From a virus (Duplodnaviria > Caudoviricetes), in the IMG/VR virus record IMGVR_UViG_3300028833_000120, positions 20,978-84,977 of that record: a DNA stretch of 64,000 bases; one strand, given 5' to 3'. A program made the position numbers and the translations under genes. Under the pieces are notes generated by a model. The model worked only from the letters and a program-made list of their open reading frames with translations, ran no database searches and was not told the origin of the DNA. Shown here one piece after another: positions 2,070-39,057 of this stretch (its first letter is position 1; every line of letters begins with the position of its first letter).

Positions 2070-2837
2070 TTACCACAATGGGAACATTTTTTCATTTTTT
2101 ATTTTTTCAATCCTCTTATTTGCAGTATTACAATATTCCGTGCTTATTTCTGCACCGATATATTTCCTATCTAAATTTTCACATACACAGCAAGTTGTTC
2201 CAACACCGGAAAACGGGTCAAACACAACATCACCTTTATATGTAAAAAGTTTCAAAATTCTTTCAACCAATTCTTCTGGAAACATCGCCGGATGACCAAA
2301 TTCTTTCATTCTTTTTTCAGGAGGTATCACCCACTTGGCCGTAGTGTATAACTTGAACTCCTCACCGGTTATGTCTATATTTTCTTTTAGTCCTTTATGT
2401 TTCGGAGAGTTTTTATAGAAGTATTCAACATATTCCCATGTGTATTTCAAATATGGTTGTGACGGACTCTTCCAACTACCCCATGTTGTATATGCACAAT
2501 TATAGTTATTCTTCTCCCAAAGTATCTCACCTCCCCAAGTAAGTCCAAGTTCGGTAAGAATTTTTGTAACGATATGATGTGTCGGATAGTTATTTGTAAA
2601 AACCGGTTGCACATTGACAAACATTCTTCCACCATCCTTTAAAACTCTAACACACCCTTTGAATATATTCGTTAAAAACTCCTCATATTTCTCAGGTTGA
2701 AACTTATCGTCATAATTATTATATTCCTTTTGGAACATATATGGTGGACTTGTAATGATACAATCGACAGACGAGTCACACATTTTTTCAATAATTGTGA
2801 TACAATCCTCGTTATATATTTTATTAAGTTCTATCAT
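2070..2837 (-). CDS. Beta-class DNA methyltransferase, probably N4-cytosine
   Basis: Motif IV TSPPY near the N-terminus, HPAMFP and motif I DPFSGVGTT. C-terminus is FPLW. Confidence 0.9.
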   Translation of the reverse strand: MIELNKIYNEDCITIIEKMCDSSVDCIITSPPYMFQKEYNNYDDKFQPEKYEEFLTNIFKGCVRVLKDGGRMFVNVQPVFTNNYPTHHIVTKILTELGLTWGGEILWEKNNYNCAYTTWGSWKSPSQPYLKYTWEYVEYFYKNSPKHKGLKENIDITGEEFKLYTTAKWVIPPEKRMKEFGHPAMFPEELVERILKLFTYKGDVVFDPFSGVGTTCCVCENLDRKYIGAEISTEYCNTANKRIEKIKNEKMFPLW

Positions 2838-2884
2838 ATATTAAATATAACAAAAAAGGAGAGATTTTTAAATCTCTCCTTTTT

Positions 2885-4993
2885 TTAAGACATGCTTCTT
2901 TTTGAATCAATAAGCGTTTTTTGAAGAATTAACATCTTCCACATTTTTTCACTATTTTCACTGCTCCCAATATATTTTCTCAAAGTTGTTATTGTTCTAA
3001 ATACAACTTTTCCGTATATTTCCGTCTCAGTATTATACTTTCCATCAACAATATCTTCCATATAACTCATAACATTATCAATGTCTGAACCTTCGGCCTT
3101 TCCTTTTTTTGGAAGAATTCTCATTTCGTCTGGAAGTTCTTCATTATTTATATCATCATATATCTTTCTTTTAATCCATTCCCAAACAACTCTTTGTGTT
3201 GGACTTATATCAATAACAGTCAAACGTGAAGAAAGTGCTCCCCAATGAGGGGCAATAAGTCTACTGTTTGAAAACTTTTCTATTGGTTTATTACTTACAA
3301 AAACTATAAAACCATTAAAAATAAACTGATTAGGAATAAGGGCACGTTGTTTTTGTTCAGCATATTTCTCAAAATTCTGTTCTGCTTGCAATCTCAAAGC
3401 GGCAGCACTCATTCCTGAATATTCTGGGTCTTTTTTCGTTTTTGCTTCATCTTCAGCTGTAAGTTTCTTTATTTCTTTTTTAATCCATATTCCTCTATCA
3501 TACTCAGATATTGAACCAACTTCTAAATAATATCTTTCACGTCTAGATAATCTTTCACCCATAACGTCGTAAAATTCAGATTTTTGGTCTCCAGCATTAA
3601 GACCTCTTGCTGTTGGAGCAGTAAGTTTTCTCTCCTTTTCCGTTTCAGATGTTGCTTTCTTGAAAAGAGAAATCTTATCATCATCATCCCATATATTTGG
3701 AGTGTCGTCATATATAAGTACCATATTATTAAACCTATATAGGTTTTTATATACAGCTTGTGGTGTTGATACTGCACCTATACTAATATAATGAATACCT
3801 TCTATTGCACCAGTATTTTTAATTGCTTTTTCTATACCGACAGATTTACCAATACCAGCAGTACCTGTGACAAGGATACCTCTTGTAAGTGCCATAATAC
3901 CTTCAAGTTTTTCGGTAGACCCTTCTTTACCGCCTTTCTTAACGTATTCTAACATTGCTTCAACAGACCGTCTTTCAAATTCCATACGTTCTTCCAAATC
4001 ATCAATTTTTTCATTGATGACACTTTCAGCCTCTCTAACATCCCAAAGACCATGTTCATTGATATATGTTGACAATCTACCACTCTTTCCTGCATTAAAA
4101 AACCACAAATCTTTCAATTCTTGTGCCTTATCATCAGTAAGACCATGTGTTGTTCCACACAATGCCATATGTACAAGTGTAATTGTTCTATGTCCATTTG
4201 TACTATCCAAATCGCCGGTAGATGTAATGAATAAAGCTCTCTGAACTTGATAAAGGTCTTCCGTTTCATCAAAAAAATCAGTAGTCATTATTTTAAGAAT
4301 ATCTGGGTCATCATATTTCTCAAAAAGTTTTAAAAATTCATTTGCAGATTCTCTTGAAATAGTGGTATCATCAGTCTCTCTTGTTCTTGAAGACTTACTT
4401 ACCAATTTTCCCATAAAGGCGGCTGTGATTTTTTTAGGAGAACCGTCTGAAATTTTTGTAACAGGTGATATTCCTATTTCCGCCTTCGGTGTAACTTCTC
4501 TTGCTTCAGATATAGGTGAATATTTGTTATTTATAACATTAAGTGTAGATATAAGTGTTCTTATCATCGACAACCAACCAAATTTTTTTGTAGATACAGA
4601 AAACACCGATTTAGCGTTACTATTTTCAAGTGGGTCTTCATTAAAGAAAATTATCACTTTATCGATACCACTTTTCGACAACACCAAATAAAATTCATCA
4701 CAATATATCATTGTAGCCTTTTTTCCATTAGCTGTGATTATATATGGATGAACATTCCAATCAATATTATCAAAATTATTCTTAAGATGTTTTAAAATAA
4801 TAGATGTTGCCTTCAACAAATACCTATTATCTGAAACAAATTCCGGTTTATCAAAGTCTTCTTCTGTATTGAAAACATCACCAATATTACTACCATTACC
4901 ATCTATACCTGGTACATAAACACCAGGTATACTATTTTCAAATAACGAAGTATAACCAGATTTTTTCAAAAATTCATTAAAACTTTCAATCAT
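2885..4993 (-). CDS. P-loop AAA-type ATPase, late gene with a capsid-targeting-like N-terminus
   Basis: Walker A GTAGIGKS, Walker B VLIYDD, sensor FVSN and ALSSR. N-terminus MIESFNEFL. CATAAATA lies upstream on the minus strand near 5023-5030. Confidence 0.7.
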   Translation of the reverse strand: MIESFNEFLKKSGYTSLFENSIPGVYVPGIDGNGSNIGDVFNTEEDFDKPEFVSDNRYLLKATSIILKHLKNNFDNIDWNVHPYIITANGKKATMIYCDEFYLVLSKSGIDKVIIFFNEDPLENSNAKSVFSVSTKKFGWLSMIRTLISTLNVINNKYSPISEAREVTPKAEIGISPVTKISDGSPKKITAAFMGKLVSKSSRTRETDDTTISRESANEFLKLFEKYDDPDILKIMTTDFFDETEDLYQVQRALFITSTGDLDSTNGHRTITLVHMALCGTTHGLTDDKAQELKDLWFFNAGKSGRLSTYINEHGLWDVREAESVINEKIDDLEERMEFERRSVEAMLEYVKKGGKEGSTEKLEGIMALTRGILVTGTAGIGKSVGIEKAIKNTGAIEGIHYISIGAVSTPQAVYKNLYRFNNMVLIYDDTPNIWDDDDKISLFKKATSETEKERKLTAPTARGLNAGDQKSEFYDVMGERLSRRERYYLEVGSISEYDRGIWIKKEIKKLTAEDEAKTKKDPEYSGMSAAALRLQAEQNFEKYAEQKQRALIPNQFIFNGFIVFVSNKPIEKFSNSRLIAPHWGALSSRLTVIDISPTQRVVWEWIKRKIYDDINNEELPDEMRILPKKGKAEGSDIDNVMSYMEDIVDGKYNTETEIYGKVVFRTITTLRKYIGSSENSEKMWKMLILQKTLIDSKRSMS

Positions 4994-5063
4994 ATTTTTT
5001 GTTTATATTATATTATTTAAAGTATTTATGAAAAAAGAAAAAGGAGGATAAACCTCCTTTTAA

Positions 5064-5933
5064 TCACCACAAACCATTATCATTGTTATAGTTTAAGTAA
5101 AGACTCTCATATACGATTGCATTTTTATCTTTACCGGTTGTTCTTTTGAAAGATGAGTTTCCACTTTTGATATAAAGATGTCTTCTGTAACACTTTTCTG
5201 GTACAGAGTATGTGTTGTCAATATCACCGGATTTCCCATCAAATGAAAGTGCAAACTTCACATTCATTTTCGAAACATTTTCAAGAAAAACAAAGAACGA
5301 CTCAAAGTCTATCCCTCCGAAATACATTCCCTTGGTGTTGAAATACGGTGGGTCCATATAAATGAAATCACCTTCTTTTATTTCATCAAGTATTTCTTCA
5401 TAGGAACGATGTACAAACTCGACGTTATTTTTTCTCAATTTGTCACTCCATTCATTTAATATGGGTTTCAACAATTCTGGTTTGATTCCATTTCTTGTTA
5501 TGTGAAAACTATTGTTGAACTCACCCATCTGATTATATCTCGGCATACCGTTTGTGGTTGTTCTCATTATGAAGAAAAACACAAGTGGGTCGTGGTTCTC
5601 GTTGTATATCTTCCTTTGTTCCTCAAAAAATTTCCTCTTACGGTCTATATCGTTGTCTTTGTTCAACTCTTCCCACAGTTTCACATAAGACTCATATATC
5701 TCATCCGGTGAATGCTTTACTTTTTTCCACAATTCAATAAGGTCTTGGTTTATGTCAGAACACACATATCTCTTCACAAATATTCCAGAGTTAATCAAAC
5801 CCATAAGCATCGAACAACCACCACAGAAAGGCTCGTAGTATGTGTCGATTGTCTGTGGGAAATACCCAAGAATATCTTCACACTGACTTCTTTTTGAACC
5901 ACTCCACTTTATAACCGGTTGAAACTTAACCAT
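5064..5933 (-). CDS. Alpha-class (Dam/D12 family) N6-adenine DNA methyltransferase
   Basis: KWSGSKR, YYEPFCGG, SDIN and YMDPPY. C-terminus is NGLW. Confidence 0.9.
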   Translation of the reverse strand: MVKFQPVIKWSGSKRSQCEDILGYFPQTIDTYYEPFCGGCSMLMGLINSGIFVKRYVCSDINQDLIELWKKVKHSPDEIYESYVKLWEELNKDNDIDRKRKFFEEQRKIYNENHDPLVFFFIMRTTTNGMPRYNQMGEFNNSFHITRNGIKPELLKPILNEWSDKLRKNNVEFVHRSYEEILDEIKEGDFIYMDPPYFNTKGMYFGGIDFESFFVFLENVSKMNVKFALSFDGKSGDIDNTYSVPEKCYRRHLYIKSGNSSFKRTTGKDKNAIVYESLYLNYNNDNGLW

Positions 5934-5936
5934 ATC

Positions 5937-6683
5937 TTAAATTCCTATTCTTTTTTCTGCAATATCGAAATATTTTTTATTCAATTCTATTCCAATAAAA
6001 TCCCTGTTCAAATTTCTGCAAGCGACTCCAGTGGTACCGCTACCCATAGTCATATCCATAACCAAATCACCCTCTTTTGTGTATGTTTTTACAAGATATT
6101 CGAGAAGAGCGATGGGTTTCTGTGTTGGATGCAAATGTGACTTGTCTGTATTGAACTCAAGTATATTGTATGGATATCTCAACGAAGTATCCCTGTCTTT
6201 GTGTCTGTATACACCGTTCTTGTGGTTTTCTGCAAATATCGAAGTTGTTTTACTCTCTTTCGGAAGAGTATATTTTTCACCTTTTATCATCTGTGGATAA
6301 TAAGGCATTTTCTTCTCACCATATCTTGCATAACCGTTTGAAAAAACAGAAATGATTTCTATATTGTTCAACGGTTGGTATGGCGCTTGTGGAAAATTTG
6401 ACTTCGTGTCTTTTTTCCAAATCCAGTCATACTTGAACTCATCGACATTTGACATTCTCAACATAGACGAAAACGGTTCCTTACCAAACAGTATAATGGG
6501 AATGTAATCTTTACGTAGTTGTTTTATACACCCCCACAATTCGTCAAACGGAATCACAAAATCCCATTTTTTGCATCGACTTGTACCATAAGGCAAATCA
6601 CATATAACTGCATCAACTTTCACACCCCATTCAATAAGTTTGTGCATAATATCTATACAATCACCATTATACAGTTCAAACAT
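5937..6683 (-). CDS. Beta-class N6/N4 DNA methyltransferase
   Basis: CDLPY, HPTQKP and DMTMGSGTTG. Confidence 0.9.
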   Translation of the reverse strand: MFELYNGDCIDIMHKLIEWGVKVDAVICDLPYGTSRCKKWDFVIPFDELWGCIKQLRKDYIPIILFGKEPFSSMLRMSNVDEFKYDWIWKKDTKSNFPQAPYQPLNNIEIISVFSNGYARYGEKKMPYYPQMIKGEKYTLPKESKTTSIFAENHKNGVYRHKDRDTSLRYPYNILEFNTDKSHLHPTQKPIALLEYLVKTYTKEGDLVMDMTMGSGTTGVACRNLNRDFIGIELNKKYFDIAEKRIGI

Positions 6684-6684
6684 A

Positions 6685-7419
6685 CTAAAAAAGTTTTATT
6701 GTATTTTCCACCTCATTCATTCTTTGTTCGACAATCTTAAAATAACCACAATCCAATTCAATACCTATAAAGTTACGGTTTGTATTGACACAGGCTACGC
6801 CGGTTGAACCACTACCCATTGTATTATCAAGAACCGTTTCTCCTTCATTGGTATATGTCTTTATAAGATACTCCAAAAGGTCTACCGGTTTCTCATTCGG
6901 ATGTTGTTTGCTGTAATTATCAACACACTTGTATTCAAGGAGATTGTTCGGATACCTTGTTGTATCTCCACCCTCATAATTCCTCTTGTTTCCACCATAA
7001 TAGATTTTACCGTTGGAACAACCCTTTGCACTGTTTGTCGGGATATGTCCATCGGACTTTTGTGGGTAATATTCGTGTTTGTAGAAAACACATATTTCCT
7101 CTATCTTTCTCAACGGCATCCGTTTGGCGTGGAAAAAATTTGTCGTCTGGTTTTTTGACCAATACCAGCAATATTTGAAATTTTTTATATTCGAATTTAT
7201 GAGTTTTGTTGTAAATGGTTGTGACGAAAACAACACAACCGGACAATCGTCCTTTCTTACCCTCTTATAATGATTCCACAACAAGTCAAGGTTTATCTCT
7301 TTATCCCACTCTTGTGCAGTGCAGTTATATGGAAGGTCACACAGAATCATATCAATGGATTTGTCTTGAATGCTATTCATAACATCAAAACAATCACTAT
7401 TAAATAACCTTGTACTCAT
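6685..7419 (-). CDS. Beta-class N6/N4 DNA methyltransferase
   Basis: CDLPY, HPNEKP and DNTMGSGSTG. Ends IKLF. Confidence 0.9.
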   Translation of the reverse strand: MSTRLFNSDCFDVMNSIQDKSIDMILCDLPYNCTAQEWDKEINLDLLWNHYKRVRKDDCPVVLFSSQPFTTKLINSNIKNFKYCWYWSKNQTTNFFHAKRMPLRKIEEICVFYKHEYYPQKSDGHIPTNSAKGCSNGKIYYGGNKRNYEGGDTTRYPNNLLEYKCVDNYSKQHPNEKPVDLLEYLIKTYTNEGETVLDNTMGSGSTGVACVNTNRNFIGIELDCGYFKIVEQRMNEVENTIKLF

Positions 7420-7639
7420 TATTCAAATATAAGTATTCTACTTTACATTTTTCACAAGTTTCCCATTTAATCCATTCGAGTGCCTTTTCAAATGTGTCAA
7501 ATTCAACATAGTCACTCCATTCACCAATATATCCAAAATAATGCCACCAACTCCACCAATGCTTATGTTGTGGGAAATAAGTAACCGAAATCTTTCCGTC
7601 GATTCCCTTTGATTTTACTTTCTTAATTCTATATTTCAT
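7400..7639 (-). CDS. Small hypothetical protein, Trp-rich
   Basis: ATG 7639 (MKYRIKK) lies 1 nt after the upstream MTase stop. Contains YFPQHKHWWSWW. Confidence 0.6.
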   Translation of the reverse strand: MKYRIKKVKSKGIDGKISVTYFPQHKHWWSWWHYFGYIGEWSDYVEFDTFEKALEWIKWETCEKCKVEYLYLNNEYKVI

Positions 7640-7640
7640 A

Positions 7641-8390
7641 CTAAAATAAAGTTTTATTATTCGACTCAGCTTCAATTATTCTCAGTTTTGCAATCTTGAA
7701 AAACCTTTCCTCGATTTCAAATCCTATAAATTTTCTGTTTGTATTGATGCAAGCGACAGCGGTCGTTCCACTACCTATACAATTGTCCAACACCAATCCA
7801 CCTTCCGGACAATACGACTTCACCAAAAATTCAATCAACTCAACCGGTTTCTGTGTAGGATGTATCTGGTCCTGTCTTCTCCATTTTTGTGGAAAGTCTA
7901 AAACCGTGATTGGATGACGTGTTCCTTTGTTGTCAGTCTCGACACCTTTTATCCCATATCCAAGATTATTCACTTTGTTTGGAGTATACTTTCTTTTATA
8001 TGGAGTTCCTTTTGACATCTGTGGTTCATAGTATGCTGCCGACTCACCGAATACAAGTATCATCTCGTGTTTCTTTAACGGCATATACTTTGCCGTAAGA
8101 GGAGACCCACACTTCGATTTCTTCCAAACCATATCATATCTGAAAAGTTTCTCATTTGAGATGGCAAGTTTAAATGCAAAAAGACCGGAACCGAAAAGAA
8201 TGATATTTCCTTTCGGTTTGATTATCCTCTCATATTGTCCCCACAACTTATCGACTGGGAGTTGAACATCCCAATTCATTGATGTTGATTGATAAGGTGG
8301 GTCACAAATGATACAGTCAACAGAATGGTCGTCAATCTTCTTCATCCCTTCAAGACAATCCTCGTTATATATTTTATTAATTTCTAACAT
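7641..8390 (-). CDS. Beta-class N6/N4 DNA methyltransferase
   Basis: CDPPY, HPTQKP and DNCIGSGTT. Ends KTLF. Confidence 0.9.
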   Translation of the reverse strand: MLEINKIYNEDCLEGMKKIDDHSVDCIICDPPYQSTSMNWDVQLPVDKLWGQYERIIKPKGNIILFGSGLFAFKLAISNEKLFRYDMVWKKSKCGSPLTAKYMPLKKHEMILVFGESAAYYEPQMSKGTPYKRKYTPNKVNNLGYGIKGVETDNKGTRHPITVLDFPQKWRRQDQIHPTQKPVELIEFLVKSYCPEGGLVLDNCIGSGTTAVACINTNRKFIGFEIEERFFKIAKLRIIEAESNNKTLF

Positions 8391-9174
8391 ATTAAAATAA
8401 ACTATATTCTTTTTCTTGCAATTCTTCTTTTATTCTCTTACAAGATTTATCATAATATTCTTTGTTCAATTCAAATCCGATAAAATTTCTATTTTCTCTT
8501 ATACAAGCGATAGCAGTTGTACCAGACCCCATGCAGTTGTCAAGAACCAAATCATCCTCGTTTGTATATGTACGAACCAAATATGCAACAAGGTCAACTG
8601 GTTTCTGTGTCGGATGGATTTTAGATTTATCACGATTATACTTCAGTATAGATGTCGGGTATCTATCTCCATTATTGACAGTTATAGTTTCTTTATTGTT
8701 CTTATAGTCATAATTTGTTCCGACACCACCTTGTTTGCATATATAAGGTTTTCCCGTTCCCATCTGTGGGTGGTATGTCATTGCATCATCAGAATTTTTC
8801 ACAAAACAAGCAGCCTTTTTGGAAAACACAAGTATATTCTCATGCTTCTTCAATGGGGCAAAATTACTGTTAAGATGACCTGTTCCGGAATCTTTTTCCC
8901 ATATCCACTCATATTTCAACATCTCAATATTACTTGCACCAAGTATTTTATCGAAAGGAGTCTGGGCAAACAACACAATTGCTCCAGCTGGTTTTATGAT
9001 ACGTTTATATTCAGTCCATAAAGAATCGAGTGGTATGACACTATCCCAACTATTCTTTGTTGTCCCATAAGGTAAATCACAAATGATACAATCAATTGAT
9101 TCATCATCTATCTTCTTCATCCCTTCAAGACAATCCTCGTTATATATTTTATTGATTTCTAACATATTAAAATA
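8335..9174. repeat. 65-bp direct repeat (8335-8399 and 9110-9174, 1 mismatch) spanning MTase gene junctions
   Basis: atcttcttcatcccttcaagacaatcctcgttatatattttatt(a/g)atttctaacatattaaaata is present at both positions. Confidence 0.9.
8392..9165 (-). CDS. Beta-class N6/N4 DNA methyltransferase
   Basis: CDLPYG, HPTQKP and DNCMGSGTT. Ends YSLF. Confidence 0.9.
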   Translation of the reverse strand: MLEINKIYNEDCLEGMKKIDDESIDCIICDLPYGTTKNSWDSVIPLDSLWTEYKRIIKPAGAIVLFAQTPFDKILGASNIEMLKYEWIWEKDSGTGHLNSNFAPLKKHENILVFSKKAACFVKNSDDAMTYHPQMGTGKPYICKQGGVGTNYDYKNNKETITVNNGDRYPTSILKYNRDKSKIHPTQKPVDLVAYLVRTYTNEDDLVLDNCMGSGTTAIACIRENRNFIGFELNKEYYDKSCKRIKEELQEKEYSLF

Positions 9175-9907
9175 CTTTTACTTCATTTTGTACTTCTGAA
9201 ATTCTTCTTTTTGCAATATCGTAAAATCCTTTGTCTATTTCAAATCCTATGAAATCACGACCGAGATTGAGACAAGCGACACCGGTACTTCCACTACCCA
9301 TACAACCGTCGAGTACAACATCACCTTCGTTTGTTGATATGAATACAATCCTCTCCATCAGTAAAACTGGTTTCTGTGTCGGGTGGTTTGTCTTTTCCTT
9401 TGAGTTGTGTGGAAGTGCCGGTATATCAGTCCATACATCCGACAGACTAACTCCGTCTTTCAACATACCTTCGGTGTATTCCTTTCTTTTTGTATCTGGT
9501 TTCACCTTTATATTATTAAAAACCGGTTCGCCTCCAGATTTGGAATAATAAGCAATCGGTTCGTAACCGGAAGCGAGGGAGTGACCCCTCGTATTGTTGA
9601 AACCTCTTTTCCTTGCCCAGATGATTATCCTTTTCTCAATCAGATATTTATCAAGCATGTTGCATATTTTCCTATTCATTTGTCTTGATGTGAAAAGAAA
9701 GATGTTTCCACCGGGTTTCAATACACGAACATACTGCACAATCAAAGACTCAACCCATTCAAGATAACCTTGTTCTGACGACCATTGGTTATCAAACTCC
9801 GCCTCAACAACACCAAAATAGGGCAAATCACAGATAATACAATCTATCGAACAATCTTTTATTTTGTTACGTATTCCGTCGACACAATCTTCATTATACA
9901 ATTCCAT
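9167..9907 (-). CDS. Beta-class N6/N4 DNA methyltransferase
   Basis: CDLPYF, SDVW, HPTQKP and DGCMGSGSTG. Ends VKVF. Confidence 0.9.
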   Translation of the reverse strand: MELYNEDCVDGIRNKIKDCSIDCIICDLPYFGVVEAEFDNQWSSEQGYLEWVESLIVQYVRVLKPGGNIFLFTSRQMNRKICNMLDKYLIEKRIIIWARKRGFNNTRGHSLASGYEPIAYYSKSGGEPVFNNIKVKPDTKRKEYTEGMLKDGVSLSDVWTDIPALPHNSKEKTNHPTQKPVLLMERIVFISTNEGDVVLDGCMGSGSTGVACLNLGRDFIGFEIDKGFYDIAKRRISEVQNEVKVF

Positions 9908-9911
9908 ACAC

Positions 9912-9985
9912 TAAATATAACAAATTACATAAATAACATATACATAAAAAAAAAATTACATAAATAACATATACATAAAAAAAAA
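9912..9985. promoter_or_regulatory. Divergent promoter cassette: TTGTTATATTTA (- strand, 9912-9923) back-to-back with CATAAATA (+, 9928-9935, duplicated at 9959-9966 in a 31-bp tandem repeat)
   Basis: Both motifs recur upstream of many genes. The tandem unit is aaattacataaataacatatacataaaaaaa. Confidence 0.75.
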
Positions 9986-9988
9986 GAT

Positions 9989-10456
9989 ATGATTAAGAAA
10001 TTTGAAAATTTTATAAACGAAAATGCATCAAATGGTATTTTTCCAAAAAAATTACAAGAACATATAGAGTTTATAATACAATCTCTAAAAAAATCAGAAG
10101 ATAAAGATAAAAATATATCTGCTTTCTTTACAAGTACAAAAGATGAAGAAAGAAATGAAATAAAACGAATGTTGGAAAAAGAACTTGGTGATGATTTATT
10201 CATAATCAATAAAGACATTGATTCAACTGAAGATATGGAAAAAACCATTGAAGAAAATAAAGGTAAAGTATTCTATTTCACTCATTTTAAATCAAAAGAA
10301 ATGTTGAAAGTAATATGTGCAACACCATTGAAACACAATTGTGTCATAAACATATGCACAACAAACGAACCAGAAGGAAAACTCTGGGGTGAAATATTTA
10401 AAGAACGTTTTACTTGGATTTGTAACATTTCAGAATTAAAAGATTTATGGAAATAA
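9989..10456 (+). CDS. Putative internal head protein (capsid-targeting N-terminus)
   Basis: N-terminus MIKKFENFINE resembles the T4 internal-protein CTS MKTYQEFIAE. Late motif upstream. Confidence 0.6.
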   Translation: MIKKFENFINENASNGIFPKKLQEHIEFIIQSLKKSEDKDKNISAFFTSTKDEERNEIKRMLEKELGDDLFIINKDIDSTEDMEKTIEENKGKVFYFTHFKSKEMLKVICATPLKHNCVINICTTNEPEGKLWGEIFKERFTWICNISELKDLWK

Positions 10457-10463
10457 ACAAAAT

Positions 10464-10490
10464 AAAAGGAGGTCGATTGACCTCCTTTTA
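10464..10490. terminator. Bidirectional intrinsic terminator
   Basis: aaaaggaggtc-gatt-gacctcctttt between convergent genes. Confidence 0.8.
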
Positions 10491-10495
10491 TTTTT

Positions 10496-11179
10496 CTACC
10501 ATAACGGAATGTCATCAACCTTTCCGTCGAACCTTTCCATATTTCCGGTGTCCCAATTCATTATTTTAGCAGGAATTTCAGTTTCCGGAAGACACATTGA
10601 CACTCCATCCATCCTGAAAAGGTTATAAGAGACGATTTCTGCCCATTTTTTTACCTCTGTGGGGTCTTTACCGAACTTTGTGGTAAAACTCTCCACAACG
10701 GCAGATAAAACGTTCTCACGGGCAAGAAACAATGAATCTTCCTGCCACTCGTATCCATAAGTTGATTTAAGTGCAAGTTCCGCCAATCGGTACCATTCTT
10801 TTTCATCATTGGTTTTTATTCTCTGAAGTTTTCTGTCAAGAATACCAACCCTCTTGTTGATTGGAATCTTCTCACCACTCGAAACATCATAGAGTGTTGT
10901 GAGATATGGTGCTTCACCACAAGTCACTTCAAGAACTTTTCTTTTGATATATTCCTCATCAGAACCTTTATATTCCTCATCAAACATATCATTCATTCTT
11001 TTCACCACCTCAATCGGAGTAAAAACCTCCGCTTTCTCTTTCGTCCTTGCAGTCTGTACATCGACATTCTTTAAGTAACGTGGTACAACTTCATCAACAT
11101 TTACATTGAGTTTTCCACCGGTTGTACGTTCTTCAAGTAAAATTTCTTTTATATTCTTATCTATATTCATTTCAAACAT
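10496..11179 (-). CDS. SAM-binding half of a split gamma-class (Eco57I/type IIG-like) adenine methyltransferase
   Basis: Motif X KAEVFTP, motif I VLEVTCGEAPY and motif II YGYEWQ. No NPPY. Ends IPLW. Confidence 0.75.
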   Translation of the reverse strand: MFEMNIDKNIKEILLEERTTGGKLNVNVDEVVPRYLKNVDVQTARTKEKAEVFTPIEVVKRMNDMFDEEYKGSDEEYIKRKVLEVTCGEAPYLTTLYDVSSGEKIPINKRVGILDRKLQRIKTNDEKEWYRLAELALKSTYGYEWQEDSLFLARENVLSAVVESFTTKFGKDPTEVKKWAEIVSYNLFRMDGVSMCLPETEIPAKIMNWDTGNMERFDGKVDDIPLW

Positions 11180-12039
11180 CTGTCTTTTCTTTTCCTTTCA
11201 AAATCAAATCCATTAACATATTCAAGTATTTCATCTACATCCTCTTCCTCACACCCGACACTAAACAGAAGTTCCCTCTCATTTTCAATCTTCGAGTAGT
11301 CAATATCAGGAAACAATCTCCACACCTTTCTTTTCATATTCCTATCGTCTTGACAAATCCACAGACAAAACCTCATAAGATTGGTATGAAGTAAATTCCA
11401 TACATTCTTTGCAGACTTTTTATCACAGAAACCGAGAACAACCTTCGTTGTTGTATCAGTCCTGAAAAACTTGTTTTCCTCTTCGAGACTCAACACACCG
11501 ACATTCTCCAAAGACTTCTGTGCAATCCACTTTCCGTTTTCCTTATAGTTTGCATAACTAACATTGATAAACCAAGAATATTGGTTCAACTTCTTCAAGT
11601 CTTTTGTTTTATTCCAGTTATAATAGTCCTTATTCCAACTACCATACATAGTGACGGTGTGTTTGTACATCTTCTCTTCTTTATCCATAAGAGAACATAT
11701 CTTTTTTTCTATGTGATTCAGAAGAATATTATCACCAAAATTCAGTCTGAAATCAAAATTCTTTGAACCTTTCTTGCAAAAATAGATTGCTGGGTCTGTC
11801 ATTTGTGTTTCTTGAAACAATACACTATCCACAATCTCTATCCTCTCACATCCGAGTCTTTTCAAGAACGTTCTCTCCCTCTCCATTCTCATATCATACA
11901 AACATTTAGATGGCATAATGAAACAGAGTTTGTCATCAAACACACAAGTACTTGACTTCATTATATTGAAATGAAGCAATCTACTTCCCACCTTATCATG
12001 TCCGTATGGTGGATTGCCCACGATTACATCAAATCTCAT
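11167..12039 (-). CDS. Catalytic/target-recognition half of a split gamma-class methyltransferase
   Basis: Begins directly with motif IV (MRFDVIVGNPPY), followed by LCFIMP and a TRD-like C-terminal region. No motif I. Confidence 0.75.
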   Translation of the reverse strand: MRFDVIVGNPPYGHDKVGSRLLHFNIMKSSTCVFDDKLCFIMPSKCLYDMRMERERTFLKRLGCERIEIVDSVLFQETQMTDPAIYFCKKGSKNFDFRLNFGDNILLNHIEKKICSLMDKEEKMYKHTVTMYGSWNKDYYNWNKTKDLKKLNQYSWFINVSYANYKENGKWIAQKSLENVGVLSLEEENKFFRTDTTTKVVLGFCDKKSAKNVWNLLHTNLMRFCLWICQDDRNMKRKVWRLFPDIDYSKIENERELLFSVGCEEEDVDEILEYVNGFDFERKRKDRCLK

Positions 12040-12043
12040 ATAC

Positions 12044-12066
12044 TAAATATAACAAATACATAAATA
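12044..12066. promoter_or_regulatory. Divergent early(-)/late(+) promoter cassette
   Basis: taaatataacaa-ata-cataaata. Confidence 0.75.
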
Positions 12067-12087
12067 ATATAAATCAAAACAAAATTT

Positions 12088-12474
12088 ATGGAACTTAAAA
12101 ATTTTGAAGAATTTATCAGTGAGAATGTAAATCAAAATTCAGATTTAATATTTTTCTGTAAACATTCTGACTTCTGTACATATTGTCCTCTGTTTCACGG
12201 TGGTAGTAGTAGAACTTGTCACGACCACGAAGGAATCTTTGTATCAAAAGACACAAGAATTGAAAACGGAAACGAACTCGTATGGGTTTGCATAAACGGT
12301 GAATGGAGTTGGCAGAAGAAAGATATAGAACCATCAAAATTCGACAACAGTAAAACTTCAAAAAGAAGAATCATAGACGGTAAAAAATGCAGATTCTACA
12401 AAGGTCATTGGGTTGATATTGATAACAAAGATGTTATAGTGAAAGACTATACAAACGATGTATTTGGTGAATAA
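12088..12474 (+). CDS. Putative internal head protein, Cys/His-rich
   Basis: N-terminus MELKNFEEFISE and a CKHSDFCTYC...CHDH cluster. Late motif upstream. Confidence 0.6.
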   Translation: MELKNFEEFISENVNQNSDLIFFCKHSDFCTYCPLFHGGSSRTCHDHEGIFVSKDTRIENGNELVWVCINGEWSWQKKDIEPSKFDNSKTSKRRIIDGKKCRFYKGHWVDIDNKDVIVKDYTNDVFGE

Positions 12475-12486
12475 AACTTATAAAAC

Positions 12487-12515
12487 AAAAAGGAGGTCAA
12501 ACGACCTCCTTTTTT
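12487..12515. terminator. Bidirectional intrinsic terminator, near-identical to the one at 10464
   Basis: aaaaggaggtc-aaac-gacctcctttt. Confidence 0.8.
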
Positions 12516-12877
12516 ATTGTAGTTGTTCCTTCCAAGTTTTCCCACACTTCCGGCAAGTGTAAACTCGATAAGTGTTGTGAACTTTATGTTTTCCGAACTC
12601 CGTCTTGTTTCCATTTTCATCAAGATATTCTTCCTCATACGAAATTGATGAGTTGTTGTAACAGTTGTGGTATATCTTATCTGGTAGTGAAAACTCTTCG
12701 TTGATTATCATAAGAATCACAAGTGCCCACGACATAAAGACACACAACAATATACCTGGTATCAAAAAACAACTTCGGATGGTCATAGTCTTTATACTCA
12801 CGAATTTTTTTGTTACCGAGCAAAGCGATAACGATACCTATTGTCCAAAAGATTATAAGTGCAAGTATGTTGTTCAT
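12514..12877 (-). CDS. Small membrane protein with a C-terminal CxxC, split over two frames at a T6 run (12764-12769)
   Basis: ORF 12677-12877 supplies TM1 and ORF 12514-12801 supplies TM2 plus CRKCG. A +1 join at TTG TTT TTT G gives about 120 aa. Confidence 0.5.
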
Positions 12878-12884
12878 ATTTTTA

Positions 12885-13184
12885 TTAAAATTTATATGTC
12901 CTACAATCCATCGGTGGATATTTTACTTCCAGAAGTCCCAACACAGACCTTACATTTTTTGATGCTTTCACGGCTTCATCGTAATTGTTATAAACCGCCC
13001 ATTGGTTTCCACCACGTACAACTTCCATTCTTTCGACCGTCATATTGTATCCACAATCGGCGAGGTTCTCCACAAGGAAATCGAGGTCTCTCAAATACCA
13101 CCAGTTCCCATATTTCTTGACAAATCTTTTTTTATTGTTCTTCGGTATCATTGTTCGTTTTATTTTTTGATAAAATATCTTCAA
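12885..13184 (-). CDS. Hypothetical protein
   Basis: ORF in an operon-like arrangement. The start may be the internal MIPKNN. Confidence 0.5.
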   Translation of the reverse strand: MKIFYQKIKRTMIPKNNKKRFVKKYGNWWYLRDLDFLVENLADCGYNMTVERMEVVRGGNQWAVYNNYDEAVKASKNVRSVLGLLEVKYPPMDCRTYKF

Positions 13185-13992
13185 ACTCTTTAATCATTTC
13201 ATCATTTATAAATTTATAACCATCTGCTTTTCTACTCTTTTTAATAAACCAACTAAACATTCTTCTTGTATTTGTATCACAAAAATCTGGCATCGAATAT
13301 GGGTTTGTTGAAACAAATGCTTTTATTACACTATGATAAAAATCATTTTTTTGTATATATAATTCGATTTCTTTACGATTTGCAACTCTAAATGATTTCT
13401 CATCATAGTCCAAATTTTGTAAATAATCATCTTTCCATTCAAAATCTTCATCATACCCAACAAGACTTTTGAAAAAATCATCACGTATATCTTCAAATTC
13501 AACCAAACATTTTCCTTTACAAGTATTTACAACATAAACAACAAACGGCATAATTTTCTTTCCATTTATTGTGATACCTTTTTTTCTTATACCTATTGGC
13601 ATTGTTTCATTACAATGAAACGCTGATAAATCATTCAATTTTATAGAAATATCATATAAACCTATAGCAGTCATTCGTAATTGTCCTTTGTGGTTTCCTA
13701 TGAAATACAATGTACCAAAATCACCCTCTTCAGTTACACCTTCAATCCAAATAAGATTATCACAACGAATATCAAACATATATTCATCATTTAATTTGAT
13801 GCAACCAGAATTTTTTGGATGAAAATCGGTTTCACCACTATCAATGAGTTTATTTTTTTCATAACAAAATAAACAATGTTTATCATCATCGTTTTCTAAA
13901 AACATTTTTGCTGTATCACTAAACTTTGACATCTTCTTCAATTCTGACATTATAGTTTCATCAGAAACTGATAAATAATTATAAATTTTCAT
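13132..13992 (-). CDS. Hypothetical protein
   Basis: 286-aa ORF, visibly more AT-rich than its neighbours. No motif recognised. Confidence 0.6.
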   Translation of the reverse strand: MKIYNYLSVSDETIMSELKKMSKFSDTAKMFLENDDDKHCLFCYEKNKLIDSGETDFHPKNSGCIKLNDEYMFDIRCDNLIWIEGVTEEGDFGTLYFIGNHKGQLRMTAIGLYDISIKLNDLSAFHCNETMPIGIRKKGITINGKKIMPFVVYVVNTCKGKCLVEFEDIRDDFFKSLVGYDEDFEWKDDYLQNLDYDEKSFRVANRKEIELYIQKNDFYHSVIKAFVSTNPYSMPDFCDTNTRRMFSWFIKKSRKADGYKFINDEMIKEFEDILSKNKTNNDTEEQ

Positions 13993-14016
13993 ATTCTTAT
14001 TTTTTTAGTTTATATC

Positions 14017-14769
14017 TTACCACAACCCTTCGACAGGTTCATCAACTTCCTTAATCAATCTTTCATTTGCAAATTTTACATACTCATCAGATATTTCAAA
14101 CCCTATGAAATTCCTTCCAGTCTGTTTTGCCGCCACGGCAGTCGTCCCACTCCCCATAAAGGGGTCGAGTATCAAATCACCTTCTTTCGAAAAAAGGGTT
14201 ATTAGTTTCTTTGCAAAATCAACAGGGAAACAAGCCCCATGAGTTGATGTGTTATTCTGTTTATGAAAACCAGAAATCACATTGTTTTGCATCCCACGAC
14301 CGAAATACGAGTTGTTTATCACACGACCTTTCTTATCGTCACCCTCCAAAATAACAACAAATTCGTAACAAGAGTTCAATACTTTGTCGTGCATCGCCGG
14401 TTGCCCCCCTTTGTGCCAAATCATAATGTCTTTTATATATGGTGAGAAATCACCAAGCAGTCTGAAGAACGCTTCCTTGGAACCCGTGACAATTTGGTAG
14501 TTGTAACACACAATCTTCGACACTCTCAACAACTCTGTCAAAACATCTTTGTGAAAATAATAGTATTCTTCAATAGGAAGGTCATCACCGAAATATTTAT
14601 ACTTCTTACTGAAGTGCTCACCGTGCTCTCTTACAGTATATTGTCCTTCACGGATACGAGTTCTCATGTTATAAGGTGGTGACGTAAGTACCATATCAAC
14701 AGACTTGTCTGGAAGTTTCTTCAACCCTTCAAGACAGTCTTGGCTATATATTTTGTTTATCTCCAACAT
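14017..14769 (-). CDS. Beta-class DNA methyltransferase, probably N4-cytosine
   Basis: Likely start is ATG 14769 (MLEINKIY). TSPPY, HGACFP and DPFMGSGTT. Ends EGLW. Confidence 0.9.
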   Translation of the reverse strand: MLEINKIYSQDCLEGLKKLPDKSVDMVLTSPPYNMRTRIREGQYTVREHGEHFSKKYKYFGDDLPIEEYYYFHKDVLTELLRVSKIVCYNYQIVTGSKEAFFRLLGDFSPYIKDIMIWHKGGQPAMHDKVLNSCYEFVVILEGDDKKGRVINNSYFGRGMQNNVISGFHKQNNTSTHGACFPVDFAKKLITLFSKEGDLILDPFMGSGTTAVAAKQTGRNFIGFEISDEYVKFANERLIKEVDEPVEGLW

Positions 14770-14773
14770 ACAA

Positions 14774-14808
14774 TAAATATAACAAAACATAAATAAGTTA
14801 TATAAATA
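14774..14808. promoter_or_regulatory. Divergent early(-)/late(+) promoter cassette
   Basis: taaatataacaa-aa-cataaata, with an additional TATAAATA at 14801-14808. Confidence 0.75.
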
Positions 14809-14818
14809 AAAAAGAAAC

Positions 14819-15040
14819 ATGATTAAAACATTTGAAGATTTCAGTAGAACAAAAATTGAACCAAAATTATACAGTGGTATATTACAATACAGTGGTGAGG
14901 AAACCACAGGACAACTTATAGTATTTAACAACAATATGTACATATTGTCGGATGAAAATATTTTTGAAGGTAACAACACAATTTTAATCGGTGCCGACGA
15001 AGAGACATTGGTAGACCCTAACACGGTAAAAGAACTATAA
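14819..15040 (+). CDS. Putative internal head protein
   Basis: N-terminus MIKTFEDF. Late motif upstream. Confidence 0.55.
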   Translation: MIKTFEDFSRTKIEPKLYSGILQYSGEETTGQLIVFNNNMYILSDENIFEGNNTILIGADEETLVDPNTVKEL

Positions 15041-15085
15041 GTGATAAACTATAAGACATAAACAAATTATATAAATAAAAAAACT

Positions 15086-15433
15086 ATGATTAAAAAATTT
15101 GAAGAATTTGTAAACGAATCTCTAAACCAATTAGATTTTGAACCAATTTTGTGGGGTGTTGAAATCTTTGATGATGAGATGGAGGATGACAAAGGTATTT
15201 CCGTAACTCTTGAAAGAGGTGCCGGTGGTGGTCGAGAACTTATTGAATCACACTGGAAAGTATATGCAATTGAGGATTTGGATGACAGATGGAACGTAAA
15301 GGCTATCTGCATCGATTCCGAAGATAGAAGATACCAACCAGATGATGAGATTGATTTTGAAGTCAATAAAGACGATGATGTTTGGGACCTTGAATCTTTA
15401 TTGCAAGATGCTCTTGATAAAGAAGGATTCTAG
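15086..15433 (+). CDS. Putative internal head protein, very acidic
   Basis: N-terminus MIKKFEEFVNE and TATAAATA upstream. D/E-rich. Confidence 0.6.
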   Translation: MIKKFEEFVNESLNQLDFEPILWGVEIFDDEMEDDKGISVTLERGAGGGRELIESHWKVYAIEDLDDRWNVKAICIDSEDRRYQPDDEIDFEVNKDDDVWDLESLLQDALDKEGF

Positions 15434-15434
15434 T

Positions 15435-35986: not shown

Positions 35987-37168
35987 TTAATCCGTAATAA
36001 TCCTAACCGTCTTTTTCACGGTATCGACATTCGATACACCGAAATGTACTTCCTTACCAATCTCAACGTTGTTCATATCGACAACCTTTCTTGACAAGAA
36101 GAATGTAATATTATTGAAATTTGGAGCAGACACCACGACACCATTATCAAATGTATTCTTGATGACACCGGTAAGGACATACTTATTATCCTTATCGACA
36201 GTTTCCTTCAAATTGTTCCAACCCTCACTCTTACTGTTTGTCTGGGTTATAGTAATCCTGTCGTTAACAACACTCTCGACATAGAACTTAATCGATTCAC
36301 CAACTTTGATTTCACCATTCTTGAATTTATTCTCAGTCTCTTCATTCATCTCACTTACAGACAAAAGTGTAGGAACACATTCGTCGATGAGGATGAATAC
36401 ACCGAAAGGTTTGATGGATGAAACAATACCTTCTATAAGGGATGCCTTATCTGCATTTTCAAGATTATAAAGTACATCATCTTTTTTAGTATTCAAGAAC
36501 TCCTTGTGTGATACGACAATACTATCTTTCACTTTAGCAACAGGCATAACATACATTGACTTACCAATCAAAGTGTTATAATCTTCGAGAGGTACAACAT
36601 CCGATTCACTTCCTGGCATGAAACATTTCAAACCACTAACATCGACAATGAATCCATTGAACACTTTGGAAGAATTGAACACAATATCCTTGACAACACC
36701 GACATATGCTGAAGTTGGTGTTTCAATCTGCTTAATTAGTTCAATACGAAGTCTTTCCAACTGAGCACTCTTGGAAGCTGCATCGGCGATAATCTTACCA
36801 TCCTGTTTGGTTACTACAACTTCAATAGGTTTACCAATCTCCATCTCATCCTTGATGGAAGATGTGTTCTTTGACGAAAGGTCAATTGTCGTAGAATGTT
36901 TTTTGGAAAGTGAAATGTCTGCAACATTGTCGTTAAATGAATTTACGACACCTGTACAAATACCCTTGTATGAAGAATTGTCATAAGATGAAATCACCTT
37001 AATATCATCTGAGTTAAATGAAGCATCATACATCTTCATCAAATCCAACACATACGGTTCTTTACAAAGGATTTTTTGATGTCCGTTGATTGGGACAACC
37101 ACTTTCTTGGATTCAAGTGGATTTTCCGGATTTATAATTTCAATCGTTTGAGTCTTTATTTTACTCAT
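35987..37168 (-). CDS. Ribosomal protein S1-like protein (multiple S1/OB domains)
   Basis: GFIVDVSGLKCFMPGSE, EGIVSSIKPFGVFI and GVIKNTFDNGVVV repeats. Confidence 0.75.
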   Translation of the reverse strand: MSKIKTQTIEIINPENPLESKKVVVPINGHQKILCKEPYVLDLMKMYDASFNSDDIKVISSYDNSSYKGICTGVVNSFNDNVADISLSKKHSTTIDLSSKNTSSIKDEMEIGKPIEVVVTKQDGKIIADAASKSAQLERLRIELIKQIETPTSAYVGVVKDIVFNSSKVFNGFIVDVSGLKCFMPGSESDVVPLEDYNTLIGKSMYVMPVAKVKDSIVVSHKEFLNTKKDDVLYNLENADKASLIEGIVSSIKPFGVFILIDECVPTLLSVSEMNEETENKFKNGEIKVGESIKFYVESVVNDRITITQTNSKSEGWNNLKETVDKDNKYVLTGVIKNTFDNGVVVSAPNFNNITFFLSRKVVDMNNVEIGKEVHFGVSNVDTVKKTVRIITD

Positions 37169-38096: not shown

Positions 38097-38333
38097 TTAC
38101 TTTTCTTTTAAAGATTTTACCAATTCATCCAAAGTTTTGTATAAATCACCAGGATGATAATCTGCATAACCGCCTAATTTGTAAGTTTCCTCTTCTATAA
38201 TTCCACCATCAAGAAAAAATCCTTTCGATTTCTCCTTCGTAAATAATATAGATTCTATTCTCTCTTTTCTAATTTTATTGTCAAAAAGAAAATAAACGAT
38301 ATCACCTAAATTAAAAGTCGTATTATATGTCAT
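38097..38333 (-). CDS. Small hypothetical protein (paralogue-like of the next ORF)
   Basis: TFNLGDIVYFLFDN...LYKTLDELVKSL. Confidence 0.6.
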   Translation of the reverse strand: MTYNTTFNLGDIVYFLFDNKIRKERIESILFTKEKSKGFFLDGGIIEEETYKLGGYADYHPGDLYKTLDELVKSLKEK

Positions 38334-38578
38334 AATTCTTTAAAAATTTTTTTTATCAAAGAGTTAATAAGTTCATCTTTTGTATCAAACACATCTTTAT
38401 CATACACCTCTATGTTATACTCATAACCACACCTAATACCTATATATTTTACAGAGAGTCTACTAGTAGATTGTAACGTAGCATATACTTCTATTTTTTT
38501 AATGAGTATCTCCACTGGCATATTATTAACCATACACCAACATTTATCACCAATATCGTATTTTGTACTTATTTCCAT
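38330..38578 (-). CDS. Small hypothetical protein
   Basis: KYDIGDKCWCMVNN...VFDTKDELINSL. ATGA overlap with the next gene. Confidence 0.6.
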   Translation of the reverse strand: MEISTKYDIGDKCWCMVNNMPVEILIKKIEVYATLQSTSRLSVKYIGIRCGYEYNIEVYDKDVFDTKDELINSLIKKIFKEL

Positions 38579-38580
38579 GA

Positions 38581-39057
38581 TTAAAACAATGTTTCTTCCT
38601 CTTTTTTATTTTTTGTTTCTTTTTTATTTGTCTTTTTAACTATGACACAATCTTTATTATCAAAAAAATTCTTTTTTATAAGGTCAAGTGTTTTAGTAAT
38701 AGTTTCTTCGTCAAACATATATGCTTCCTCCAACTCTCTCATCCCAATCTCGTTTATCTCCATATATTTCTCCAAAACACAATCCTCATATTCACTGAGG
38801 ATTTTATCCTTCTTTTTCTTTTGTGAAATTTTCAATTTCAAGAAAGGAGGTAAATCCGTGTATCTTGTTGCAAGCATTGCCACAAGATTAGAAGAAAGTT
38901 CTGGGTCGGAATCAAGATTATTTACAAGATTACACTGAATCGGATATTGGGCAGAAAACAGTCTCTTTAACATAAACGAGTGCTTTCTTTTGTCTACACT
39001 CGACACTGCACCGGAATTTCTGTGACAGAAACAATTTAATACTTCGAATAGTTCCAT
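38581..39057 (-). CDS. Probable clamp-loader small subunit (gp62-like)
   Basis: LFEVLN...SFMLKRLFS...N pattern. Ends ETLF. Confidence 0.45.
   Translation of the reverse strand: MELFEVLNCFCHRNSGAVSSVDKRKHSFMLKRLFSAQYPIQCNLVNNLDSDPELSSNLVAMLATRYTDLPPFLKLKISQKKKKDKILSEYEDCVLEKYMEINEIGMRELEEAYMFDEETITKTLDLIKKNFFDNKDCVIVKKTNKKETKNKKEEETLF

Follow-up and report, generated by a model that had tools for sequence, protein, structure and literature searches.

Leu-Phe and Leu-Trp C-termini shared by DNA methylases and the DNA polymerase of an uncultured jumbo phage: a candidate docking peptide for a phage-encoded PCNA-like clamp

INTRODUCTION

Why should DNA methylases of several classes, encoded in one phage, end in the same two residues as the replicative DNA polymerase encoded close by? 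The question is raised by a 64,000-nucleotide stretch of viral DNA (referred to here as the window), which comprises bases 20978-84977 of a viral contig of 84,977 bp (G000; IMG/VR record IMGVR_UViG_3300028833_000120). An earlier note on this DNA had proposed that nine methylases, the polymerase and two further proteins carry a common C-terminal Leu-Phe or Leu-Trp tail (L[FW]) by which they are held on a sliding clamp, so that a panel of methylases could modify nascent phage DNA. Having followed up this proposal computationally, we consider it probable, on balance, that an L[FW] tail borne on a charged extension is this clade's docking peptide for its own, phage-encoded PCNA-like clamp, and that it couples methylation to replication.

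The relatives used for comparison are IMG/VR contigs recruited by the protein encoded at window positions 1136-2017, the proposed clamp, and they differ from the source contig in this protein to various degrees: G001 (133.6 kb; 98% identity), G002 (363 kb; 62% identity; 96% complete) and G003 (345 kb; 47% identity; 94% complete), to which a 412-kb relative (G004) is added. G000 itself has an estimated completeness of 31% (CheckV), and given relatives of 345 to 412 kb, the window is part of the genome of an uncultured jumbo phage.

RESULTS

C-terminal tails in the window and their enrichment

All 12 of the C-termini to which the earlier note had drawn attention are present in the window, and all end in L[FW] except for a single VF (9167-9907). 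In an alignment of 22 beta-class enzymes from the phage and its relatives, the dipeptide is preceded by a mostly charged extension of 10 to 12 residues beyond the catalytic domain, which agrees with the charged linker that had been described. The carriers, together with one tail-less paralogue, are as follows.

2070-2837, minus strand: beta-class N6/N4 methylase (PF01555, E 2.2e-46), tail FPLW; orthologues end FRLW or FQLW
5064-5933, minus strand: D12 (alpha-class) adenine methylase (PF02086, E 6.1e-30), tail NGLW
5937-6683, minus strand: beta-class methylase (PF01555, E 1e-28) without the tail, an internal contrast
6685-7419, minus strand: beta-class methylase (PF01555, E 2.9e-25), tail IKLF
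7641-8390, minus strand: beta-class methylase (PF01555, E 1.3e-32), tail KTLF
8392-9165, minus strand: beta-class methylase (PF01555, E 1.4e-32), tail YSLF
9167-9907, minus strand: beta-class methylase (PF01555, E 4.7e-50), tail VKVF
10496-11179, minus strand: N-terminal half of a split Eco57I-like gamma methylase, tail IPLW; no Pfam match of its own, assigned via fused relatives
14017-15024, minus strand: beta-class methylase (PF01555, E 4.7e-35, residues 109-321), tail EGLW
15479-16249, plus strand: beta-class methylase (PF01555, E 1.4e-34), tail VKLF; the gene ends at 16249
18402-21342, minus strand: T4-type family B DNA polymerase, tail VPLF; two open reading frames (ORFs), 19579-21342 (N part) and 18402-19622 (C part)
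21474-22082, plus strand: conserved protein of 202 amino acids, tail NQLF; no family
38581-39057, minus strand: conserved protein of 158 amino acids, tail ETLF; matches phrog_35599 (unknown function), E 3.7e-6

Counted above the Pfam gathering score, PF01555 (N6_N4_Mtase, beta class) matches eight ORFs in the window and PF02086 (D12, alpha class) one; seven of the nine tailed methylases belong to the former family and 5064-5933 to the latter.

The earlier note had suggested a count of such ends across the whole proteome, and this count bore the idea out, L[FW] ends being rare elsewhere. ORFs were called greedily and without overlap (at least 40 amino acids in G000), the overlapping ORFs discarded by this call being referred to as rejected ORFs, and expected counts were taken from the internal frequency of the L[FW] dipeptide (0.0043 to 0.0048; 0.0048 in G000). 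The choice of start codon is immaterial to the counts, since C-termini depend on stop codons only. Across the whole G000 contig, L[FW] ends were found on 12 of 85 ORFs against 0.41 expected (binomial P = 1.4e-14), and [LVIM][FW] ends on 13 of the 85. The corresponding figures were 7/128 in G001 (0.59 expected; P = 2.7e-6; rejected ORFs, 7/622), 16/476 in G002 (2.3 expected; P = 2.5e-9; rejected ORFs, 13/1899) and 14/515 in G003 (2.2 expected; P = 9e-8; rejected ORFs, 15/1659). The enrichment is real and lies far beyond chance. About two L[FW] ends are expected by chance per near-complete genome; other single carriers were an NT5C-like nucleotidase in G002 and an IspD-like protein in G003. The Leu codons of the tails vary among genes (TTG, CTT, TTA and CTG; the Val is encoded by GTA), which shows that the tails did not arise by copying of a single stretch of DNA.

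Conserved tails on the polymerase and two proteins of no known family

The claim that the polymerase shares the tail held up well: the enzyme ends in VPLF, VPLF, EGLW and AGLW in G000 to G003, respectively, and in seven further relative loci large ORFs in its place, judged from size and position and not by family, end in GLW. PF00136 and PF03104 match its N part and phrog_262 its C part, and it shares approximately 30% identity with the gp43 proteins of KVP40 and T4-like cyanophages. Its nearest counterpart in GenBank, from the 462-kb uncultured phage LR756500.1, is 36.6% identical and has a broken or intein-like arrangement; at the DNA level, the polymerase region has no match among GenBank phages. 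The earlier description of the polymerase as split could not be maintained. It is read as two overlapping ORFs because of a frameshift in an A-run at their junction (window 19579-19622; ...CATAAAAAAATGGG...), where there are 2 nucleotides fewer than in the intact gene of G001 (980 amino acids; 93% identical), and we attribute this deficit to an error of sequencing or assembly or to a genuine frameshift, and not to a natural split.

The 202-amino-acid protein retains its tail in orthologues at 58 to 98% identity (NQLF in G000 to G002, VKLF in G003), and orthologues of the 158-amino-acid protein end in ETLF, ETLF, EGLF and KTLF in the same four genomes. These proteins had been called gp33-like and gp62-like, labels for which we found no homology support. 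The former had no match in Pfam, PHROGs, NCBIfam or the PDB (by sequence or by profile), no usable lead in the ESM Atlas and no match by tblastn against 50,697 phage records, and the phrog_35599 match was the only one for the latter; family and PDB searches recognized no homology to gp55, gp33 or gp62 in either. The tail is nevertheless conserved on both, as it is on the polymerase and on the N-terminal gamma half, from 98% down to 47% identity of the clamp.

A predicted PCNA-like clamp

The hub proposed for these tails is encoded beside them.

1136-2017, minus strand: PCNA-like sliding clamp of 293 amino acids (AlphaFold2 and Foldseek)

This protein had no match in Pfam, PHROGs or NCBIfam, none in the PDB by sequence or profile, and no relative among GenBank phages. 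Modeled by AlphaFold2 with a 34-sequence alignment, it reached a pLDDT of 90.6 and a pTM of 0.86 and displayed repeated strand-helix-strand units (a single-sequence run, with a pLDDT of 34, was of no use). The PDB matches listed by Foldseek were all PCNA or 9-1-1 clamps (best E 4.5e-13, probability 1.00; TM normalized to the target, 0.66 to 0.78), and among the best of them were 1rxm, 1isq and 3p83, which are structures of complexes with clients bearing PCNA-interacting protein (PIP) boxes. The model thus agrees with the earlier assignment of this gene as the clamp and predicts a PCNA-like fold with two tandem clamp-fold domains per subunit. Three copies folded together gave a pLDDT of 89 to 90.

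The gene is present in one copy per genome, and its product is the only clamp detected in G000 to G004. The Pfam models of gp45 (DNA_PPF and gp45-slide_C; PF02916 and PF09116) had no match above the cut-off in these five genomes. A sub-threshold match of gp45-slide_C in G002 (310865-311623) was dismissed as chance; it falls on an unrelated, nonconserved ORF without counterpart in G000, G001 or G003. Because of its size, the 237-amino-acid product of 40282-40995 was also considered as a gp45-like clamp, and PDB sequence and profile searches, the ESM Atlas and family searches gave no evidence for this. In the window, the clamp gene lies between a tailed methylase and gp47, and in the distant clade the gene order is polymerase, tailed gamma half, clamp.

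A complex prediction with the trimer and the tail peptides had been suggested earlier. We ran it for one tail, combining three copies of the clamp with the last 30 amino acids of 2070-2837, and obtained a median ipSAE of 0.38, whereas the highest of three controls scored 0.00. At least 70% of contacts were common to the runs, and the pLDDT of the partner was at least 47. The verdict of the tool was "weak support." In the calibration of the tool, the mark was reached by 58 of 80 solved complexes and by 2 of 110 mismatched pairs; among those reaching it, only 7 of the 80 complexes, but both of the mismatches, had a score of 0.60 or less. We regard the prediction as a slight positive at most.

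Methylases with and without the tail

It had been stated that only one standalone methylase lacks the tail. For the whole methylases of the window this is correct, the exception being 5937-6683, which stops at the end of its catalytic domain (...AEKRIGI), 10 to 12 residues short of its tailed paralogues. The statement does not extend to two tail-less methylase halves (11167-12039 and 16265-17143; see below) or to a second D12 methylase located outside the window (contig 8625-9464). The latter ends in ESLYWN, where its paralogue 5064-5933 continues for 8 residues to ...NGLW. With regard to 14017-15024, the first 85 residues from the longest-ORF start (GTG) have no match in the paralogue alignment, and the true start is probably near 14769, at the internal Met of MLEINKIY..., about 85 codons downstream of the annotated one.

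Alpha, beta and gamma classes are all represented among the carriers, as the earlier note had it (D12, PF01555 and the N-terminal gamma half), and C5 enzymes join them in distant relatives. The tail was found on 7/8 PF01555 methylases in G000, 2/2 in G001, 7/8 in G002, 1/1 in G003 and 1/3 in G004, and on one of the two D12 methylases in each of these genomes. C5 methylases were not found in G000 or G001; the tailed fraction of C5 rows was 0/7 in G002, 3/7 in G003 and 4/7 in G004, split pieces being counted among these rows, as are, for G002 and G003, some small or opposite-strand ORFs placed under the matches by the greedy call. The tail is therefore common on methylases and not universal. The C5 cytosine methylases of G003 (129728-133487) and G004 (284944-291401) are in pieces, with one catalytic N-piece and several alternative C-pieces; most of the pieces end in L[FW]. 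The methylase island itself (window 2070-17143) is highly variable, with eight PF01555 matches in G000 and two in G001 despite clamps that are 98% identical.

Is the tail simply a property of these enzymes wherever they occur? Among homologues of the beta methylases with a complete C-terminus, an LF end was found in 6 of 79 from cellular genomes versus 17 of 19 in the phage clade (Fisher P = 3e-12), an outcome in keeping with the comparison of homologues that had been proposed. Four of these six cellular enzymes have a Gln at position -4 or -5 (QVSLF, QTESLF, QTRLF and QGSLF; loci L079, L098, L124 and L128), and their ends resemble a C-terminal beta-clamp motif. The nearest cellular homologues of 2070-2837 (51 to 53% identity; loci L059-L063, on Methanoregula, Methanolinea, Methanomicrobiales and Anaerolineae contigs) have longer C-terminal extensions, and in four of the five a hydrophobic-x-Trp element (LVTW, VLHW, ILTW or LIVW) lies a few residues before the end. 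For 9167-9907, an [LVIM][FW] end is present in 78 of the 120 best metagenomic homologues; most of the others finish where the domain does or have P[IL]W near the end. Such a P[IL]W tail was absent from the 10 viral contigs read out of 11 that were found via methylase homologues bearing it.

The history of the tail was followed on a tree of beta methylases (24 from phages and 59 from cellular genomes), built with FastTree after removal of the last 12 residues. At least 12 changes of tail state are needed on this quick tree, which has some long branches, and its well-supported branches force at least six changes of the phage label. We do not rely on the exact number, and the tree suggests that the tail was gained several times independently. 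This fits the convergence proposed earlier, as does its presence on unrelated families. Because the tail is rare among cellular homologues and appears to have arisen several times, we regard it as belonging to the phage lineage and not to the fold of the methylases.

An apparently split gamma methylase and its relatives

The gene at 10496-11179 is accompanied by two candidate partners.

11167-12039, minus strand: C-terminal half of a gamma methylase, no tail; starts MRFDVIVGNPPY; weak Eco57I match, residues 1-17
16265-17143, minus strand: second C-terminal half of a gamma methylase, no tail; starts MIFDIIVGNPPY; weak Eco57I and phrog_3689 matches

Neither the sequence of 10496-11179 nor a profile gave a significant match in the PDB. 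A profile search of 1.84 billion representatives yielded 1546 relatives of 10496-11179. In five of five long ones (629 to 666 amino acids) whose N-terminus corresponds to 10496-11179, PF07669 (Eco57I) comes next, and we therefore read 10496-11179 as the N-terminal half of a split gamma-class methylase. Both 11167-12039 and 16265-17143 open with M[RI]FD[VI]IVGNPPY, with scores under the Pfam cut-off, and look like matching catalytic halves for it. In G003, a region similar to 11167-12039 sits inside a protein of 1795 amino acids. Members of the 10496-11179 family are tailed and located next to the clamp or the polymerase in eight of eight aligned members of the clade; the orthologues in G000 to G002 end in IPLW, and that in G003 ends in LSLF.

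The consensus of bacterial beta-clamp partners is QL(S/D)LF, which can be C-terminal, according to the portion of a 2024 review that we consulted (PMC11139829). We found the exact motif in 20 of the 150 best relatives of 10496-11179 (proteins P0174-P0323; mean of 0.07 and maximum of 2 in 200 shuffles) and a looser clamp pattern in 36 of the 150 (3.7 in shuffles). In the long gamma enzymes, QL[SD]LF lies within an acidic stretch directly after the shared region. Among short, split forms, QL[SD]LF or QLLLF lies at the C-terminus or within 8 residues of it in three of the four aligned, and in two it aligns with the L[FW] tail. Some of the relatives with QL[SD]LF are annotated in Ignavigranum and Jeotgalibaca genomes, which suggests that clamp-tethered methylases also exist in bacteria. 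With QL[SD]LF in some lineages and L[FW] in the lineage that has the PCNA-like clamp, one methylase family would thus carry different clamp motifs.

Other features of the region

The remaining replication genes near the tail carriers, and other genes recognized on the contig, are listed here.

3-1100: SbcD/gp47 homologue, near the polymerase/clamp region
39078-40292: 5'-3' exonuclease, ends ...SFIQD
Upstream of the window: DnaB-type helicase and UvsX recombinase
Contig 9465-10574 (upstream of the window): AAA protein with a weak clamp-loader match (phrog_168, E 2.7e-8), ends ...KKIGF

Upstream of the window there are also a RimK-like ATP-grasp protein of 612 amino acids (contig 15483-19114, located two ORFs ahead of a protein with weak Zn-protease and GNAT matches) and a Nuc_deoxyri_tr2-like protein (contig 8056-8607) that ends in TGLF and has orthologues without the tail in G001 to G003. 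Within the window, 41037-41525 encodes a protein with a TnsA-like/PD-(D/E)XK endonuclease domain, which has a "head closure" PHROG match as well, and 35987-37168 encodes a 393-amino-acid protein with an S1 RNA-binding domain.

DISCUSSION

Our data point to the tail as a probable clamp-docking peptide of this phage lineage. In the mechanism that we envisage, the L[FW] peptide would insert into a hydrophobic pocket of the phage PCNA-like clamp (1136-2017). Wherever such a clamp had been loaded at a phage fork, a set of methylases would ride on it and modify the phage DNA just made. Protection might then reach many sites soon after synthesis, before host restriction enzymes act, and the use of a phage clamp would aim methylation at phage DNA, not host DNA. 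One speculative possibility is that a trimeric clamp, with its three sites, could bring split halves together, given that both N- and C-pieces of the C5 methylases in G003 and G004 carry tails.

The closest precedent is found in phage T4, where the C-termini of gp43, gp55 and gp33 are interchangeable acidic-hydrophobic peptides on a variable linker that bind the gp45 clamp (PMC2988020, in the part consulted). T4 gp43 ends in SLDFLFG, and gp55 ends in SLDFLYEAND. As with the gp45 "toolbelt," the polymerase and other proteins share a short C-terminal peptide; here, the polymerase and 11 other proteins of the window have it after charged residues and conserved in orthologues. The gene neighborhood is similar too, with polymerase, clamp and gp47/SbcD in this order, T4 gene 45 lying between genes 43 and 46/47. 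The two systems differ in that the phage motif is L[FW]-COOH and not SLDFL[FY], and that the phage clamp is PCNA-like and lacks a gp45 Pfam match; in addition, neither gp55 nor gp33 has a recognized counterpart here. They differ also in their clients, which in the phage are mainly DNA methylases, whereas T4 Dam and the alpha- and beta-glucosyltransferases of T4 do not carry the T4 tail.

Clients of PCNA-fold clamps in archaea and eukaryotes (FEN-1, the RFC large subunit and RNase HII) likewise use hydrophobic C-terminal peptides, but their PIP box is another motif. In eukaryotes, the methylase DNMT1 is a PCNA client, and its PIP box mediates replication-coupled methylation. Presumably, the phage enzymes resemble it in that the replication clamp holds them and lets methylation travel with the fork. 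DNMT1, however, is a single enzyme, for maintenance, whose PIP box is internal and which acts on hemimethylated CpG; the phage has at least nine small orphan methylases of several classes, with the dipeptide at the extreme C-terminus and a role that is presumably antirestriction.

Several observations weigh against clamp docking. The tail fits none of the established clamp motifs in full (PIP box, QL[SD]LF or T4 SLDFL[FY]). The canonical PIP box, Qxx[LIVM]xx[FY][FY], is missing from all 12 window tails, which lack its Gln and its paired aromatics; with the bacterial motif (QL[SD]LF or QxxL(x)F) they have the terminal LF alone in common, none of the 12 having the Q at -4. The two usual clamp clients checked, the 5'-3' exonuclease and the AAA clamp-loader-like protein, are without the tail, as is the conserved core D12 enzyme in every genome from G000 to G004. 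Many methylases of the same genomes also lack it (all seven C5 rows of G002 and two of the three PF01555 enzymes of G004 among them). The TGLF of the Nuc_deoxyri_tr2-like protein is probably a chance tail, since its orthologues have none, and we have dropped this protein from the system. On the structural side, a closed trimeric ring of 1136-2017 is putative, and an ipSAE of 0.38 falls in a range where, by the account of the tool itself, fewer than half of the predictions hold if there was no prior reason to expect the complex.

Could the shared ends have no common function at all, and reflect descent of paralogues, tight gene junctions or chance? A single inherited tail is conceivable for 14 of the 24 phage beta methylases in the tree, which form one paralogous group, and four genes end ...TTT TAA/TAG T ATG, where the stop region overlaps the next start codon. 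Neither the polymerase nor the 202-amino-acid protein has an overlapping downstream start, and descent from one paralogue does not extend to families as unrelated as the polymerase, D12, PF01555, C5, the gamma half and the two proteins of unknown function. Furthermore, over the span of 98% to 47% clamp identity the tails are retained even as the codons and the residues ahead of them change, the binomial P values range from 1.4e-14 to 2.7e-6 in four genomes, and the rejected overlapping ORFs of G002 and G003 show only 0.7 to 0.9% of such ends. We therefore consider this explanation very improbable. If the tail does have a function, it may be a docking or sorting signal for a partner other than a clamp, such as a phage single-stranded DNA-binding protein (SSB) or helicase, a protease adaptor (the tail then being a degron, to set when early proteins are removed) or packaging. 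Short acidic-hydrophobic C-termini serve other hubs too, the SSB tail ending in IPF being a case in point. Such a partner would also accommodate the two conserved carriers without known function (202 and 158 amino acids) and the weakness of the clamp complex prediction. But the set of carriers is centered on the replicative polymerase and on DNA-acting enzymes, the clamp is encoded in the same gene cluster, and in relatives of the gamma half an authentic clamp motif occupies the corresponding position; no virion protein was recognized among the L[FW] ORFs listed in G002 and G003, most of which were not family-tested. Another partner thus seems unlikely to us, if less so than the absence of any function.

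A clamp may nonetheless be the partner without being the phage's own. The tails could dock on the host beta clamp, instead of or besides the phage clamp, and so recruit the methylases and the polymerase to any host-loaded clamp. The bacterial consensus QL[SD]LF likewise ends in LF (PMC11139829, in the portion consulted); the gamma-half tail of the distant clade, ELSLF, is one residue away from QLSLF; other relatives of this half, some of them bacterial, have the exact motif; and Gln at -4 or -5 recurs in four of the six LF-ending cellular beta methylases. Against this, the window tails, besides having no Q at -4 (0/12), often end in Trp; a clamp of the phage's own is encoded beside a tailed polymerase; and in the T4-type precedent it is the phage clamp to which the polymerase tail binds (PMC2988020, in the part consulted). 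Docking on the host clamp strikes us as decidedly unlikely, and we retain docking on the phage-encoded clamp as the reading to be preferred.

Clamp-binding tails and the clamp "toolbelt" are already known, and methylases as clients would extend this kind of recruitment. The remark in the earlier note that such a system had not been described is consistent with our full-text literature searches, which turned up no description of methylases with clamp tails in phages or bacteria; subscription journals were largely outside their scope, and an earlier report is possible. In the 2024 review, no word begins with "methyl," and hence its beta-clamp clients include no methylase (PMC11139829). Word searches of a comparative review of jumbo phages (PMC7824862) and a survey of viral replicases (PMC3201878), each in the part available to us, likewise gave no link between methylases and clamps.

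One of the main means by which phages get past host restriction is to encode methylases of their own. If our interpretation is correct, placing these enzymes on the replication clamp would be a simple answer to the problem of modifying every new site on a 300- to 400-kb genome in time, and it would explain how the enzymes are aimed at phage DNA and not at host DNA. It would also provide a prokaryotic counterpart of the eukaryotic link between DNMT1 and PCNA. Moreover, a two-residue recruitment code of this kind could be read directly from sequence and would allow further clamp clients to be identified in uncultured phages. A broader reading, which we put forward only tentatively and hold to be rather doubtful as yet, is that clamp-tethered methylation is a general, unrecognized strategy in prokaryotes and phages. 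In this jumbo-phage clade, the clamp would be a scaffold that takes along, behind the fork, orphan methylases of every class in a set that can change, and that unites separately encoded halves, among which the N-terminal gamma half and, in G003 and G004, N-pieces and several alternative C-pieces of C5 methylases are tailed. Beyond the clade, the reading is prompted by the exact QL[SD]LF on Eco57I-like methylases, some of them bacterial, and by the QxSLF ends of some cellular beta methylases. The presence of QL[SD]LF in bacterial Eco57I-like methylases suggests that the principle may reach beyond this phage clade.

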